A stretch of DNA of 64,000 nucleotides from Vicugna vicugna (taxonomy: Eukaryota). The notes beneath the pieces were generated by a model. The model saw only the letters and a list, made by a program, of their open reading frames with translations, had not been told where the DNA came from and did not search any database. Shown piece after piece: positions 3,478 through 46,060 of this stretch (its first letter is position 1; every line of letters starts with the position of its first letter). The position numbers were made by a program, and so were the translations under genes. Where the stretch lies: the NCBI GenBank assembly GCA_013265495.1, contig MU058000.1:2232001-2296000 (forward strand), given 5' to 3'.

Positions 3478-4097
3478 CACAAAATGTTCACAGCAGCACT
3501 ATTTACAATAGCTAAGACATGGAAACATCCTAAATGTCAATTGACAGGTGACTGGATAAAGAAGCTGTGGTATATTTATACAATGGAATGCTACTCGGCC
3601 ATAAAAAAGAATAAAATAATGCCATTTGCAGCCACATGAATGAAACTGGAGAATGGCATTCTAAGTGAAGTAAGCCAGAAAGAGAAAGAAAAACACCATA
3701 TGATATCACTTATATGTGGAATCTAAAAAAAGATATAGATGAACTTATTTATAAAAAGAAGCAGACTCACAGACATAGAAAACAAACTTAATGGTAACCA
3801 GGGTTGGGGAGGGGAAGGGGTTGGAAGGGATAAATTGGGAGTTCAAGATTTGCAGATACTAATATATATAAAATAGATAAACAACAAGTTTATACTGTTT
3901 AGCACAGGGAACCATAGTCAATATCTTGTAGTAACTTCTGGTGAAAAAGAATATGAAAATGAATATGAATATATGGAGAATATGATAATGAAAAATGAAT
4001 ATATGTATATTCCTATATGACTGAAATATTATGCCGTACACCAAAAATTGGAACATTGTAAACTGATTATACTTCAATAAAAAAACTATACATATAC
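3478..4097 (+). mobile_element. 5'-truncated recent L1 insertion (3' UTR) with TSD
   Basis: 'atgttcacagcagcactatttacaatagctaagacatggaaaca..cctaaatgtc' through 'tatacttcaataaaaaaa'; flanking direct repeat gtaaagcac at 3469-3477 and 4098-4106. Confidence 0.93.
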
Positions 4098-6992: not shown

Positions 6993-7052
6993 CCGTTCTT
7001 ACAGCATCTGTGTGTAATGCCACCGTTCTTACAGCATCTGTGTGTAATGCCA
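6993..7052. repeat. Perfect 2 x 30-bp tandem duplication
   Basis: ccgttcttacagcatctgtgtgtaatgcca at 6993-7022 and 7023-7052, identical. Confidence 0.98.
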
Positions 7053-20418: not shown

Positions 20419-21239
20419 TAATGGTGCAGGTCCTGTTATTTTGGTTCTATTAACAAAGAACCTTGCTCTTTTAGACTTCACATCAAAATGTTTGAAAATG
20501 AAATGTTACGATGTCTGAGATTTTCATCTATATTATGTGATGGAGGGGAGAAAATATATTGAACTATTGATGAAATAAAATTGATTGTGAGTCAGTAATG
20601 GCTGAAGTCGTATATTGAGGGGTTCCTATGTTAGTCTGTCTACTATAGATTTTCAGTTTTTTAAATAATTATTTTAAAATAGACATAAAAGCAGTTAACT
20701 CTACAGGATTCCTCATAGTATGGCTGGGTGCTTCTCCCTTTCTCAAATTAAACAGAAGATGGGTGGTTTAACCTCTGATAGGACAGAGTAGTGGGACCAG
20801 AACTGGGAAGCAGCACATGAGGATGAAGGGACCACACTGAAACAAAAACATTTCTGAAAGCCAGTACTTTACATTTAGCATTAAAATCCAATACCTAATT
20901 AATGAGCATTAGTGAGAATAAATAAACAAGAAAGTAAATTATCAAGTATAACAATTCAAGAACAATTTCCAGATTTGAAAGATGGGTGGCATAAATTGCC
21001 TCCAAAATTGCCAAGTGTGAAACTATTTTTAGTGGGTTTCTCTGTAAAATAGAGCAAATTGCTTTTCTCATTAAAGAGAATATGGCAGCTTGGCAACAAT
21101 TAGACCCCCAAGAAACTTCATCAAGGTGGTAAGCCTCTGAGTTTCTGTAGGGAGATTCTGCTTTGATATTTCTTCCATGGGATTTAGTATTCATTGATAA
21201 TTCTCCGTTGACTAGATTACCATAACAGTTGAGAAATAA

Positions 21240-21870
21240 TGATAGTCTAATGCCTTCTTGCCTCCTATATTTATTAGTTAGCATTTTACTTAAGGCAGAA
21301 TTCCATTCTTCTCCATATTTTATTAATTTATTTAAATTATTTATGCAAGTGTGGACTATATTATTAATTAATTACTATCAATATTTGTTTCAATATTCAA
21401 ATTGTCCCAGATTGGGTGAGTCCCTTCAAGATGCTTCCTTTATTGTTTTGAGATCTCATCATTCTGTGAGCACTCTTTCAACACAAGGCATTTTAAGTTC
21501 ATCGTGAACTTTTCCTGCCCCAGTCCTGAGATCAGCCATTACTCTAAGGAGCTCTGATTCCTTTTTGTGGAAAATATTATTTAAAAACCAAGATCAATGT
21601 TATTTCTTCTATATCCTTGTAATGGCCAGATAAGATAAATGTAGGCATGGTGCACACACATGCACACACACACTCAATTATTTCCACACATACATACACA
21701 CATATCTACCTAGTTTTCTAGTTAATCTATCATCTGTTAAAAACCTAGATTCTGTCCATACTTCCTAATCCAGTCTAACATTTTGAGGTTTCTGTCTTCC
21801 CGTATTTCTACATCCCTTCGTCAACAATAAGGAATCTTCCACTTACTGCCCTCAGTATGTTCACCAGTCT
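21240..21870 (-). mobile_element. Old L1 3' region (L1MC4/5-like), antisense
   Basis: 'tcaaattgtcccagatt.gg..gagtcccttcaag', 'ttttcctgccccagtcctgagatcagccatt..tctaaggagctctgattcc'. Confidence 0.75.
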
Positions 21871-24075: not shown

Positions 24076-24488
24076 GCAGCAACCTGGATGGACCTAGAGA
24101 TGATCATACTAAGTGAAGTAAGTCAGACAGAGGAAGACAAATATCATATAATATCACTTATCTGTAGAATCTAAAAAATGAGACAGATGAACTTACTTAC
24201 AAAACAGAAACAGACTCACAGGCATAGAAAACAAACCTACGGTTAACTAGGGGAAGGGAGGTCGGGAGGGATAAATTAGGAGCTTGGGATTAACAAATAC
24301 ACACTGCTGTATACCAAATAGATAAACAGCAAGGACTGACTTACAGCACAGGGAACTATATTCAATATCTTGTAATAGCTTATAGTGAAAAAGTATATAT
24401 ATATATATATGTAAAACTGAATCACTAGGCTGTACACAAGAAACTAACACAACGTTGTATATCTACTATACTTCAATTTAAAAAAGGA
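24076..24488 (+). mobile_element. 5'-truncated recent L1 3' end with 16-bp TSD
   Basis: 'gcagcaacctggatggacctagagatgatcatactaagtgaagtaagtcagacagag...tatacttcaatttaaaaaa'; TSD agaaaattaggcagga (24060-24075) / agaaaataaggcagga (24489-24504). Confidence 0.93.
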
Positions 24489-25114: not shown

Positions 25115-26539
25115 CTCAGTCAAAATGCAGTGATTTTTAGACCATTTACAAAAGTTTATGTAGTCTAAAAGAGACATGCTTTAAATACAAAACCCAAATA
25201 GACTGAAAGTAACAGCATGAAAAAAAAAGATATGCTGTGTAGGCAGTAAGCTGAAGAGAGTTGGAGGTGTCATATTTGTATCAGTAAAAAACAGGCTGCA
25301 AGAGAAGGAAGGAGAATTACTAAAAACAAACAGGAACACTTAATAGTGATGAAAGTATCAATAAATAGAAAAATATAGCGTAAAACATATATGTGTCTAA
25401 TAACACATTCAGAACTGAAAGGGGGAATCAGCGTGAATGGAACTTTCTAAGTATTTCCTACATAAAACTAGCCAAAGTAATAGTAGTAATAAAGATGTAG
25501 AAGATTGAAATGACATTATTAAGTACCTTTTAATCCGCTGACATTTACAAAAAGATTACATATCCAAACTGCAGAATGCACATCTGTTAGAATATGTGTG
25601 AAAAGAAAGTACTGAATTCAATTATTTAAGCTACCTTTATAGGCAGCATAAAAAATAAAGAGAAAATTTAATATTAAATAAATGGACGGATACATATAGA
25701 TTATAAAAATAGAATAAAACAGAAATAAAAAATAAAATGCAATTCTTTAGAAGGATCAAAAAAGGCCACCACAGACACAAAAATGCTCACCATCCTGTCA
25801 CAAGGAAAAGACCCTTTCAGCCAGAATGAGACACTTCTATATGCCCATTAAAATGGCTAACATGAAAATTACTTGTAATGCCAGGTGTTAGAGGGAAAAT
25901 GGAAAAACTGAAATTCTCATACACTGATGAACATCAAAAATATTTCACTGTTTGAAAGAAGTCAGACACACAAGAGCACATGCCATACGATTCCCATTGC
26001 ATGGCATTTAAAACAATGTAAACTTTTATAGTGACAGAAAGCCAACCGGCGATTGCCTGGAGACTGGGAGAAGAGAGAGGGATTAACTACAATGTGCTTG
26101 AGGAAACGTCTGGGGTGATAAAAATGTTCTGGATTGTGACTGTGGCTGGAGTTCGTGGTTGTGTATGTCCATCTAACTCATTGCATTCTGCACATTAGAT
26201 GGTGCAGTGTATTGTATGTCACTTACACCTCAATGCAGTTTGTTTCAGAAATAAATGGAAAACAAGGTAAATAAAAAGATTAAACCATTGGTCATGAGAA
26301 GACTGGATCATTTATTCTAGAGTCAAGTCACTGCAAGGGAGATTTGTGTTGTTGAGAGGAAGGTATTTAAGGAAAAGAGAAGAAAGGATCGATTATTGAA
26401 TGGCTTGGGACAGGAAATTTACCAATGTACTCAATTTCCACAATGGTATTCTAACAAGGATGTGCTCGCCACCTTAAATCTGAGAACACTGTTCAATAAC
26501 ACATTATACTAGATCACAGAAGAGTAAATGGTAGGTCAC

Positions 26540-27210
26540 TCAGATCTTAAAAATAGTGCTCTTTGTTACATCTCAGCCCTCTTTGTTGCCTGCTGCTCAC
26601 AAAATAGCTTGTGAAAATATTATGAAAATGGCTTTTAAAGACCTTCTTTGTTTTTATCAGTAAACAGCCGAGAGTAACACAAATGGGTGATAGACTTTAG
26701 AAAGCAAAGAGAGTGGATTTATTTATTTTAATTCCATATTAAAATCTGTTGCTGTTGCTAGCAATGTTGTGCTGGTCAAGGTTTAAACAACCAGTTTGGT
26801 AGAAAGGGAACAAGAAAAACCTGAGCTTGGAGCGTTTGATGATTTGCATGGTGTGAATATTCCCAGCATGATGATTTCAAGCTACAATGCAAATGCCAAG
26901 TTGGGAAGAAATGTGAACAATTGGTTCTTCCCCCTACCCTACTCTCCCACCCACCCCTACCTCCTGCTGGTGCAAAGCAGCTCCAATGCATCACTGCTTT
27001 TAGCCTGCGTAATAAACAGGATGGATGGAGATTTGTTAAGTTTATTTTCCTTCGCAACTTTTTCATTAATAGCGAATATCTTTGGCAGGTGTTAAGTTGA
27101 GTTTCATGCACTCATTAATAGAACTGAAACTCATTAGCAGATTTGCATTACTTACAAGAAGGACATTTCCTGATAACAAGGTGATCTAGTGCATCAACAA
27201 ATCAGGTGAC
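26540..27210. promoter_or_regulatory. Candidate developmental enhancer (octamer/SOX/homeobox-rich unique block)
   Basis: Octamers at 26842-26849, 26887-26894 and 27141-27148; several ctttgtt/aacaat and cattaat/cattag motifs; no repeat similarity seen. Confidence 0.4.
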
Positions 27211-27313
27211 TTCATTCTCCAAACACATCTCTTTATGTGATGGTACGTTTATAAAAGGAACTTCAGGCCTTCCTTGATTCATTTTTTTCCCAGCTCATTT
27301 TCTGTCCTTCAGA

Positions 27314-27414
27314 AATCCTGATCAGCTTTGCTAAGAACACACATCTCACCCCTTCTCACCTTCTCGTGGTGAGAAGGGGTGAGATGTGTGTTCTTAGCAA
27401 AGCTGATCAGGATT
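27314..27414. repeat. Perfect 47-bp inverted repeat with 7-nt spacer (hairpin/cruciform)
   Basis: Left arm 27314-27360 aatcctgatcagctttgctaagaacacacatctcaccccttctcacc; loop ttctcgt; right arm 27368-27414 is its exact reverse complement. Confidence 0.98.
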
Positions 27415-27551
27415 CATTCCTGATTCCACATTCACTTTGGCACAATTCGAGCATTGCACCAGCCCCCTGACCTGCCTCTCGTCCACTCTCACCCTCCCGT
27501 GGTCTAGTCTAAATTAAGTTGTCAGCATGATGTGTCTAACAACTCAGTGTG

Positions 27552-27757
27552 TTTTTTTTTATTGAAGTATCAATAAAATTAGTATCAACTGACTTAAAAT
27601 ACTCATGAATTTCAAGCATGCAACATAGTGATTCACCATTTTTATAGATCATACTCCATTTAGAGTTGCTACAAAATAATGAGTTTATCTCCCTGCGCTG
27701 TACAGTATATCCTTGCTGCTTATCTACTTTTTATATAGTAGTTTGAAGCTCTTAATC
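27552..27757 (-). mobile_element. L1 3' end (artiodactyl-type), antisense
   Basis: T tract then 'attgaagtat...caacatagtgattca...tccctgcgctgtacagtatatccttgctgcttatcta.tttt.tatatagtagtttg..ctcttaatc'. Confidence 0.85.
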
Positions 27758-28689
27758 TTATTGTTATCTGAACCCTGCTTAGCTCAAATCCCTTTTGTGA
27801 TTCTGCATCACATTCACGGTGAAGGGCAAGGTCTTCATGAAGCCCTACAACAGGGGACCACAGGGTAGGCACCCCTGTCTCCTCTCTAGCTCCATCTCCT
27901 GTTACTCATCCCCCTCACGCATGGCTCCTCTAATGCCCCTGACACTCTCTGCCTTAGGCTGCTTTCTTGGTCTGCAACTCTCTCCTAGATTCCCATAGAG
28001 TTGCCACCTTCATTTCCTCCATGTCTTTGCTCAAATTGCCTTCAGAGTGAGGTCTTTCCCTCTGCTTTCTTTAAAATTGCCCACCACCTCTCTCTTCCTC
28101 CAGCCTTGCCCTCTGCCCAACCTCTCCTCCTTTCCTGCTTTATTTTCCCCACAATACTTATAGCCTTCTAATCACTATTAAATTTACCCATTTATTGTGT
28201 TAACTGTGCCCTAATTCCTCACTGCAGTGGTATACAGTATCTTGTCAATTGTAGATGCTCAATACTATTTTTAAACATAAGAGTGAATTGTAATGTTAGT
28301 AATACATTCACCATGCATTTAGGGAAACATCTGATTATAGTCTTTGTCTTGTTTCCCATTAGAGAATTGCCTTTGTGTCTAAGAAAAAAATTTCCTGAAG
28401 CAAAACATTAAGTAAAATTTTATTTCATTTTATTAAATAAAAGCAGTTCGGCCCAGAAGAAAAAGATATGCCCAAATCTCTATTGCTGGAAATGGAGCAG
28501 AAAAAGAATGACAAAACTCTGAGTTAACTACCATAGGATTTTGCGCACGCTATAAATAGTTATTAAGACCTCATATACAGTGTGAGTGGGGCTCTCAGGG
28601 GCCCTGCTATTGGGTGGAGTCCTGATGAAAATGGATTTCTTTAGAACGAGTGATAATTCTTTGTAAATACAGCTACGTGAATAGTCTTA

Positions 28690-43079: not shown

Positions 43080-43815
43080 TAACATGAAAATACTTATGCC
43101 CAAGATTATTCATTTAAGCAGTGTTAGTAATTATAAAATAATGGATACAACCTAAATACATACATAGAAGAGTACATAAGTTAAATATAATTATGCACAG
43201 AATTGAGTACAGTGTAACTGTACAAATGGAGACAGATTTCTATGAACAAATCTGGACTAATTCAATAAACTCTTGTTAAACAATAAAGCAAAGTACAATA
43301 AAGTATTTATGATATATGTCATATAAGAAAGGTAGGAATATAACAAGTTATAGATGCATGTTCTTATTTGTGAAGAAGCAGCACAATGGCAGGGAGAAGG
43401 CTAAACAAGATGAAAAGAATGGGGGGAAGAAATGGAGTAGTTCAGATGGACAGGCAGTGACATTTTCTGAAGTATACTTTTAGGATAGCTCAGAAACTAC
43501 AGTCATGGTAAGATTTCCACACACCAAAAATACAGATGGAAAAATTAGAATCGACCAGGATGTGAGGGAAACCTAACATGGAATTCAGGCAGTAGCTAAT
43601 GAACCTAATTACATTATTGTTGGGTAACATAACCACACTAAAGAAGTTAATGGGAGTATAGTCATGTTATTTTTTTGTTTTTGATAATGTACTATGGTTA
43701 TGTAAATGTTAATTTTAGGGGAAGTTGAGTAAATAACATATTAAATAAAACTGTTATTTTGCAACTTTTTATAAGTCTTAAAGTATTTTTTAAGTTAAAA
43801 AAACAAAAACAAAAA
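43080..43815 (+). mobile_element. Old L1 3' UTR (L1MC/MD-like)
   Basis: 'caagattattcat..gcagtgtt..taat..aaaataatgga.acaacctaaat', 'ttgataatgtactatggttatgtaa.atgttaa..ttaggggaag...ttttgcaactttt.ataagtc.taaa'. Confidence 0.7.
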
Positions 43816-43850
43816 ATATTCCATGGACACTGGCACTTCATTATTTAGTG

Positions 43851-46060
43851 CCACAGATAATATAATACTCAATGGGGAAAAGCTAAAAGCTTTTCTTCTA
43901 AGATCAGGACCAAGCCAGGGTGTCCACTTTTGTCATTTTTTTTTCAACATAGCATTGGAAGTCCTAGACACAATAATTAGACAAGAAAAAGAGATTAAAA
44001 AAATTCCAGTTAAAATGAAAGAAGTAAAACCATCACTATTTGCAGATGACAGAATTCTATATACATAAAACCCTAAAAATTACACACACACACACAAACT
44101 ATTGGAAGTAATAAAAAATTCAGTAAAGCTGTTGGATAAAAAATTAATATATAGAAATCCATAGCATTTCTATACACTCATAATGATCTACCAAAAAGAG
44201 AAATTAAGAAAACGATCTCATTTAAACTTTCATTAAAAAGAATGAAATGCCTAGGAATAAATCTAGCTGGGGAAGTGAAACATCTGTACTCTGAAAACTA
44301 TACAAAATTGATGAAACAAATTGGACACATATAAATGGAAAGATATACCATGCTCACAGGTAGAAATAATTTATATTGTTAAAATATCCATACTACCTAA
44401 GGCAATCTGTTCAATGCAATCCCTATCAAAACACCGAAGACATTTTTCACAGAGCTAGAACAAATAATCTCAAAGTTTGTATGAAATCACAAAAGATCCC
44501 AAAGCAATCTTGAGAAAGAAAAATAAAGCTGGAGATATCATACACCCTGATTCTAAACGATACTGCAAAGCTATAGTAATCAAAACCACGTAGTACTGGC
44601 ACAAAAACAAATAGCTCAAGGAACAGGACAGAGAGCCCAGAAACAGACCCATGCTTATGAGGTCAATTAATCCTTAGCAAAGGAGGCAAGAATAAACAAT
44701 GGGGAAAAGACAGTTTCTTCAATAAATGGTGGTGGGAAAACAGGACAGCAACATTAAAAGAATCAAACTTGACTACATCCTCATACCATATGAAAAATAA
44801 ACTCAAAATAGATTAAAGACTGAAATGTAAGACCTAAAATCATAAATCTCCTAGAAGAAAATATAGGCAGTACAGTCTTTGACATTGATCTTAGCAATAT
44901 TTTCTTGGATCTGTCTCCTCAGGCAAGGGGAACAAAAGCAAAAATAAACAAATGGAACTGTATCAAACTAAAAAGTTTTTGCACAGTGAAGGAAACCATT
45001 AACAAAATGAACAAGCAGTCTATTGAATGGGAGAAGATATTTGCAAATAATTTTTCAAGAAGGGGTTAATATCCAAACTATATAAAGAAATCACACACAT
45101 ACAAAAAAAAAAAAAAACAAAAACAAAAAACAAATCAATCTGATTAAAAAATGGGCAGAGGACCTGAATAGACATTTCTCCAAAGAAGACATACAAATAG
45201 CCAACAGACGTATGAAAAGATGTTCAGCATCATTAATTATCAGGGAAATGCAAATCAAAACCAGAATGAGATGTCACCTCACACCTGGTAGAATGGCTAT
45301 GATTAAAAAGATAAGAGGTTACAAATGCTCGTGAGGATATGGAGAAAAGGGAATCCTTGTGCCCTGATGGTGGAAGTGTAAACTGGAGCAGCCACTATGG
45401 AAAACAATATGGAGGTTCCTAAAAAAAATTAGAAGTAGAACTACCATACAATCCAGCTCTCCGGCTGCTAGGAATTTACTCGAAGAAACCAAAGTCACTA
45501 ATTTGAAAAGATATATACACCCCTATGTTCATTGCAGGATTAGTTACAATAGCCAAGATATGGAAGCAACCTAAATATCCATCAATAGATGAATGGATGA
45601 AAAAAATGGAACATTATCAACCATAGAAAAGACTGAAATGTTTCCATTTGCATAATCTAGAGAGTATTATGCTAAGTGAAATGTCAGGCAGAGACAGACA
45701 AATACTATATGACTTCACTTATATGTAGAGTCTAAAAAGCAAGCCAAAGGAACAAGTAAAATAAAACAGAAACAGATTTAGATAGAGAACAAGCTGGTGG
45801 TTGCCAGCGAGGAGAGGGTAGAGGGACGATCAAAATATATGAAAGGTCTTAAGAGACACAAACTTCCGAATATAAAACATCAAAGTCATGGAGATGTAAT
45901 ATACAGCAAAGGAATATAATAAATACCCTAATAATTTTGTATGATGATAGTTACTAGATTTATATTGGTGATCATTTCACAATGTATGTGATTATCAAAT
46001 CACTGTGTTATATCCTTTAAACTAACATAATATCATATGTCATTTATACTCAATTAAATT
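43851..46060 (+). mobile_element. 5'-truncated L1 (RT C-terminal part of ORF2 through 3' UTR, L1MA9-like), disrupted
   Basis: Translation [19 protein letters not shown]...[25 protein letters not shown]; continuous L1 ORF2/3' UTR motifs to 'tgtcatttatactcaattaaa' plus A-rich tail; many frameshifts. Confidence 0.95.

Follow-up and report, generated by a model that had tools for sequence, protein, structure and literature searches.

The perfect hairpin at positions 27314–27414 of the window (the whole stretch of 64,000 nucleotides analysed here) is a real feature of the genome, and we consider it quite probable that it represents the neutral scar of one local template switch, which was later lost by slippage in some chromosomes. 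Template switches of this kind are well known, the present one is older than the preliminary description had claimed, and an allele that has lost the entire hairpin is probable.

Anatomy of the hairpin and origin of its right arm

The left arm (27314–27360, + strand) and the right arm (27368–27414, − strand) are complementary at 47 of 47 positions and flank a spacer of 7 nt (27361–27367). Among perfect inverted repeats with spacers of up to 30 nt this is the sole one longer than 12 bp in the 64-kb window, runners-up reaching 10–12 bp, while in 30 of 30 block-shuffled windows the longest perfect inverted repeat had 10–13 bp. Thus, the 47-bp stem with a 7-nt loop, reported in the preliminary description, stands far beyond the shuffled maximum of 13 bp. 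Exact reverse complementarity, which is expected of a template switch, extends over all 47 nt of the right arm and exceeds the length of chance matches (12–13 nt). The first base pair beyond the arms is a mismatch, and 4 of the 15 next outer positions pair, which is approximately the chance level, so that pairing stops abruptly at 47 bp. RNA folding of the region 27290–27440 gave −97.3 kcal/mol with a z-score of −15.4 (none of 200 shuffles equalled it); the hairpin RNAs of the two strands folded with −98 and −100 kcal/mol, and the hairpin folded as single-stranded DNA with about −59 kcal/mol.

Two pairs of short direct repeats, which had been noticed before at both junctions, were found again. 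The motif TCCTGAT occurs at 27316–27322 (+ strand, 7 nt), in the basal part of the left arm, and at 27418–27424 (+ strand, 7 nt), 3 nt past the right arm, where it can also pair with 27406–27412 in a mini-hairpin of 7 bp with a 5-nt loop. The motif CCTTCTC begins at 27351 and 27359, and the pair (27351–27365, + strand) overlaps the loop and the adjoining end of the left arm within a low-complexity pyrimidine run. Since a 7-nt repeat at the TCCTGAT offsets is found at 412 of 63,300 window positions, this repeat is probably tied to the event. A near-copy of the loop region 27354–27370 is located at 27487–27503 (+ strand, 15 of 17 positions), and its tie to the event is uncertain. Both mismatches are C against T; it is the only match with at most three mismatches in 128 kb (both strands), and 4 of 250 random centres did equally well. 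Should this likeness be real, that segment may have served as template of the loop, which then primed the fold-back.

The two arms differ in strand composition. On the + strand the right arm contains C and G with frequencies of 0.09 and 0.38, while in the left flank, the left arm, the right flank and the downstream tail C varies from 0.29 to 0.38 and G from 0.09 to 0.16. Since composition is reversed in the right arm only, the left arm, C-rich and G-poor like the flanks and collinear with both of them, can be taken as native sequence and the probable template, and the right arm as its inserted copy. The same polarity had been proposed earlier, and it is the right arm that appears as the compositional odd one out. 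The pyrimidine-rich host region (27240–28220, + strand, limits approximate) is interrupted at about 27546–27758, and its two segments, 27240–27540 and 27760–28220, resemble the 3′ part of an L2 element, with the left arm in register. The interruption is a younger interspersed repeat (27546–27758) inserted in the L2-like host, with relatives at 21–234, 3858–3936 and 24288–24443. No convincing second L2 copy was found in the 64-kb window; none of nine frames matched Pfam; all 17 hits of a metagenome search for other L2 copies with three motifs shared nothing with the locus but the motifs themselves and correspond to chance (highest z 2.0), and the four protein hits of a 43-residue frame were all tandem-repeat proteins, that is, artefacts. 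The argument for template switching is independent of the L2 label.

The template was local, with no distant donor, and the locus is single. A second copy of the arm core is absent from the window, where the best other match has 15 mismatches in 38 positions, and neither a contig from elsewhere nor a loose end was listed on the arm in the three DNA runs described below (80% likeness). Moreover, the right arm pairs with the first TCCTGAT copy and with 2 nt of the flank beyond it, and therefore was copied from the locus itself. This is an inverted copy of native sequence at one place, as expected for the kind of event suggested in the preliminary description. Alternatively, an older imperfect inverted repeat might have been perfected later by quasi-palindrome correction or gene conversion. 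This is a known route to perfect arms (PMC5453318), and many L2 microRNAs are reported to derive from two opposed L2 copies (PMC6433296), but the abrupt end of pairing at 47 bp, with only chance pairing at the 15 positions outside it, is not what such a history would leave. The composition of the left flank resumes right after the arm, which argues against a longer opposed element, and we regard this alternative as unlikely.

The template switch itself is deduced from the anatomy of the hairpin, and it may be imagined as follows. During replication the growing strand would switch template just past the loop, copy 47 bases of the already passed sequence as their reverse complement and then return to its own template, in a switch of either the four-point 3-2-1-4 type or the mirror 1-4-3-2 type. 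The TCCTGAT copy outside the right arm may have served as microhomology that set a switch point, or may be the product of a second short fold-back. With the four-point switches of Loytynoja and Goldman (2017, PMC5453318) and Walker et al. (PMC7954356) the hairpin shares one perfect local inverted repeat, a short spacer, an abrupt end and short repeats at the switch points. The single-inverted-repeat pattern accounts there for 31% of 794 high-confidence human–chimp events (PMC5453318). Copied fragments in apes have a median of 12 and a maximum of 128 nt (PMC7954356), so that the piece of 47 nt copied here is long in comparison with the median, but within the maximum. According to the same accounts, both studies had the parent allele at hand and excluded repeat-masked templates, whereas here an old repeat may contain the template and the switch is read from anatomy. 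Hairpins of this origin arise in thousands per mammalian lineage, so one more of them matters little by itself.

Presence in independent runs and age of the hairpin

Public sequencing runs were searched with the segment 27000–27560, and 24 of them were listed, each characterised by 60 sampled words and ranked by the share of words contained; an order based on word share yields no allele frequency. Among the runs listed, 18 of 24 contain at least 0.92 of the 60 words. Five of them were flagged as a possible source, and the other 13 belong to seven studies and three organism labels. All 13 listed non-source runs with at least half of the words reach 0.92 or more. No RNA run stands among the holders listed, which says nothing about expression. 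These shares cannot type alleles, as the pre-switch allele is expected at about 0.88 and could pass as 0.92 (P 0.28), while the share expected for an animal having only the form that skips the hairpin is about 0.79.

Contigs were compared for four of the 24 runs: X6 (organism A), X12 (organism B), X15 (organism C) and X19 (organism D, RNA by guess). In all four cases these were contigs rather than raw reads, which show presence, not absence. The hairpin form was observed in three of three DNA runs, X6, X12 and X15, which come from studies P4, P7 and P8, none of them flagged as source. Contigs of X6 cover the left flank with arm (27000–27343), the 47-nt arm, the 67-nt loop piece (27331–27397) and the right arm with its flank (27385–27559). 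In X12 a single contig, 27348–27559, spans loop, right arm and flank, and in X15 the loop contig 27331–27397, the arm and both junction pieces are present. In X6 and X15 a 47-nt contig without branches represents the left arm; contigs that connect the right arm with the right flank occur in all three runs. We infer that these piece sizes are those expected of a 47-nt inverted repeat in a graph of 31-letter words. Most pieces extend 30 letters past the junction, one letter below the bridging rule of the tool, and only the X12 contig bridges a junction in this sense, that of the right arm.

A single-assembly artefact is thereby excluded. Perfect fold-backs are a common form of artefact in general, but the loop and the junctions are represented by identical pieces in three runs, each from a different study and none flagged as source, and the 13 of 13 non-source runs with high word shares also contradict a chimeric read or an assembly error. 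The probability that we leave to an artefact is therefore close to nil, and the preliminary description, which had made the reality of the hairpin dependent on this point, is answered by the contigs of the three runs.

Depth in X6 falls toward the hairpin centre (27331–27397), where it amounts, per copy, to 0.53 of the flank depth for the loop and 0.65 for the arm; hence hairpins of this sort are under-read in short-read data. No single-base difference between organisms A, B and C was listed across 27000–27560. For organism D, X19 gave one 189-nt contig on 27109–27291 with a depth of 3, which ends before the hairpin and is therefore uninformative about it and its transcription. It has 5 differences in 183 flank bases, which may include errors, and two of the four differences listed are A to G, for which species difference, error and editing are not distinguishable.

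Since the hairpin allele is common to three organism labels (A, B and C), it points to an origin before the split of these three related organisms, or to gene flow or hybridisation between them. Between llama and alpaca gene flow is described as extensive (PMC7331169). Using values published for South American camelids (7e-9 per generation, 5 years; PMC7331169), the probability of zero changes in the 94 arm sites is 0.72 at 2.5 My and 0.27 at 10 My, and the perfect arms place a 95% bound on age near 23 My. The divergence of organism D (5 of 183), with half assigned to each lineage, also leaves 0.27, although based on one contig with a depth of 3. L2 elements entered the genome 100–300 million years ago (PMC6433296). 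Perfect arms cannot match this age, so that the hairpin is much younger than any L2 insertion, just as the preliminary description had stated. Its further claim of a very recent origin is not borne out, because the allele is found under three organism labels and the perfection of the arms allows about 23 million years. The hairpin thus demonstrates that a very recent origin does not follow from the perfection of arms this long.

A form that skips the hairpin

In X15 a contig of 53 nt joins position 27315 to 27418, omitting 102 bases (27316–27417). The whole hairpin is gone, and the seven letters that fit either side of the joint are TCCTGAT, of which one copy is left. This is the pattern of a slippage deletion of a hairpin, with breakpoints in a direct repeat and one copy kept. 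Accordingly, the repeat seen at the junction in the preliminary description is indeed there, while its role as the ends of a 102-base skip had escaped notice. The skip contig has a depth of 3.9 against 11.2 and 10.6 for the X15 flanks. Flank contigs of this run break at the two repeat copies (one ends at 27322, the other starts at 27418), while those of X6 continue through. The share of the skip form at the two X15 forks is 0.44 and 0.53, and the relative depth of the X15 hairpin pieces compared with X6 is 0.45 for the arm and 0.48 for the loop. Taken together, the fork shares and the halved depth of the hairpin make the pattern of a heterozygote. The skip form is represented by one contig with a shorter side of 23 letters in one of three DNA runs. 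If the skip form occurred in X6 at the rate found in X15, its contig should have a depth of about 8.5 there, and X6 has none; contigs lose rare variants, so that X6 and X12 cannot prove the skip form absent, and X12 is too shallow to judge.

Based on these data one can assume that X15 rather likely carries a heterozygous germline deletion of the whole hairpin; the product as such was registered in this run, and its germline origin is our inference from the depths. In a second step, following the template switch, the arms would fold in the single-stranded template, the polymerase would stall at the base of the stem, and realignment between the TCCTGAT copies would remove 102 bases by slipped-strand bypass. 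Neither step would require an RNA function. A hairpin with flanking direct repeats is described as the standard substrate of slippage deletion (PMC4134008). The likeness to that system consists in an inverted repeat with direct repeats, from which the hairpin and one repeat copy are lost. As presented in that source, deletions were obtained in vitro with purified polymerases, whereas here they come from a mammalian sequencing run and may represent a germline allele. A further difference from the published model is that one repeat copy lies here inside the base of the stem, not outside it.

Alternatively, the hairpin may be a real template-switch scar while the skip contig of X15 was produced by polymerase slippage during library PCR, with no allele behind it. 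When direct repeats flank a hairpin, Pfu and Taq slip over it as early as the first PCR cycle (PMC4134008), and so make the same deletion in vitro; the contig is single, it comes from one run and a library of unrecorded type, and the loop depth of X6, reduced to 0.53 of the flank, indicates that the hairpin disturbs sequencing anyway. Against this, a skip contig is missing in X6 where it should be visible (libraries may differ), and both the share of about one half and the halved depth of the hairpin pieces fit a heterozygote. We therefore keep PCR slippage as a possible explanation, clearly the weaker of the two.

The existence of a form free of the hairpin also invites the opposite polarity, in which the short form came first and acquired the 102 bases by insertion, together with a 7-bp target-site duplication, as a miniature inverted-repeat transposable element (MITE) or a templated insert. 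Indeed, the insert is almost wholly a hairpin, an exact direct repeat of 7 nt marks its two ends, and X15 provides an "empty" site. In an insertion of this type, however, the right arm should not extend its pairing through the first repeat copy into 2 nt of the flank, as it does here; no donor or second copy appears on the arm in three runs, and the left arm continues the flank, presumably L2-like, in register. These observations make an insertion very unlikely, and the skip form is best read as derived, because it lacks the native sequence of the left arm. Particular elements were considered as well. A hAT-like element predicts an empty site 91 bases shorter, while 102 were observed, and it was rejected on length and on repeat position. 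A MITE was rejected since the first direct-repeat copy lies inside the left arm and not outside the terminal inverted repeats, and a MITE with many copies since the arm depth in X6 is 30.7 against 23 and 24.2 in the flanks, with no foreign contigs. The pre-switch allele, having the left arm without the right one, was not found in the contigs of the four of 24 listed runs, and an orthologue search of metagenome contigs with a 20-nt flank pattern gave 0 matches.

If the deletion is germline, a single site records both how a long hairpin was gained and how it was cleanly lost. It would then provide an example of removal by slippage and a natural control for any influence that the hairpin has on RNA or an adjacent regulatory element.

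Possible transcripts and other features of the window

The preliminary description proposed that the hairpin may be a de novo microRNA precursor. For transcription and processing to a functional small RNA (a candidate new microRNA or a short endogenous siRNA) speak the very stable fold on both strands, persistence under three organism labels, a GUG apex in the fold of the + strand, and the origin of at least 18 stringently annotated microRNAs of humans by template switching (PMC10710096). The geometry is less favourable. A stem of 47 bp and a loop of 7 nt deviate from the favoured 35-bp stem and loop of at least 10 nt (PMC10710096), elongated hairpins are reported as poor substrates of human Microprocessor (PMC12553114), and basal UG is absent on both strands. 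The base rate is also low, as 57 of 6,054 right-sized genic template-switch hairpins are in miRBase (0.9%; PMC10710096); among human inverted duplicates 7.8% were counted as expressed (PMC5398296). The 422 open frames of at least 48 aa contained no recognisable exon of a host gene, although a large intron would look alike, and the only hits of these frames were three to transposase and one below cut-off. Rfam gave no match at the gathering score in the 64-kb window. All 12 matches in 26500–28500 were below the gathering scores, and 11 of them coincide with the hairpin on one strand or on both, a result that its structure by itself would produce. Thus, since the geometry is unusual, a host gene was not found and the base rate is 0.9%, the microRNA proposal is left unsupported, and a functional small RNA seems to us most unlikely.

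The likeness to template-switch microRNAs (Monttinen et al. 2023, PMC10710096) is limited to a perfect stem formed in one step from unstructured sequence. In that account the microRNAs lie for the most part in introns and show stacked reads, and mismatches were later gained by most of them, whereas here no host gene was found, the stem is too long and the loop too short. If the L2 label holds, it also resembles the L2-derived miR-28, miR-151 and miR-708 in having L2-like sequence in two orientations (PMC6433296). One can imagine the life cycle of a proto-gene at one site, where the switch wrote the hairpin together with the repeat for its removal, a putative small RNA or dsRNA pairs with L2-like transcripts, the hairpin lasted across three species, and a knock-out allele segregates. 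Such a scenario is hardly probable; if true, a comparison of the two alleles within heterozygous animals could reveal its effect.

A search of open-access main texts revealed no publication on such a locus in camelids. Several other features of the window were registered. The segment 36382–37594 contains a broken transposase of the Tc5/Tigger type with HTH_Tnp_Tc5 and DDE_1 hits in three frames. Frames in 43799–45331 gave RVT_1 at E 0.034, below the cut-off, and resemble L1 ORF2 remnants. An open frame at 21226–21504 has a sub-cutoff match to Lipid_desat (E 0.00027 among 422 frames), probably by chance. Finally, a perfect 30-bp tandem duplication (2.0 copies, 100%) at 6993–7052 is another young local copying event.
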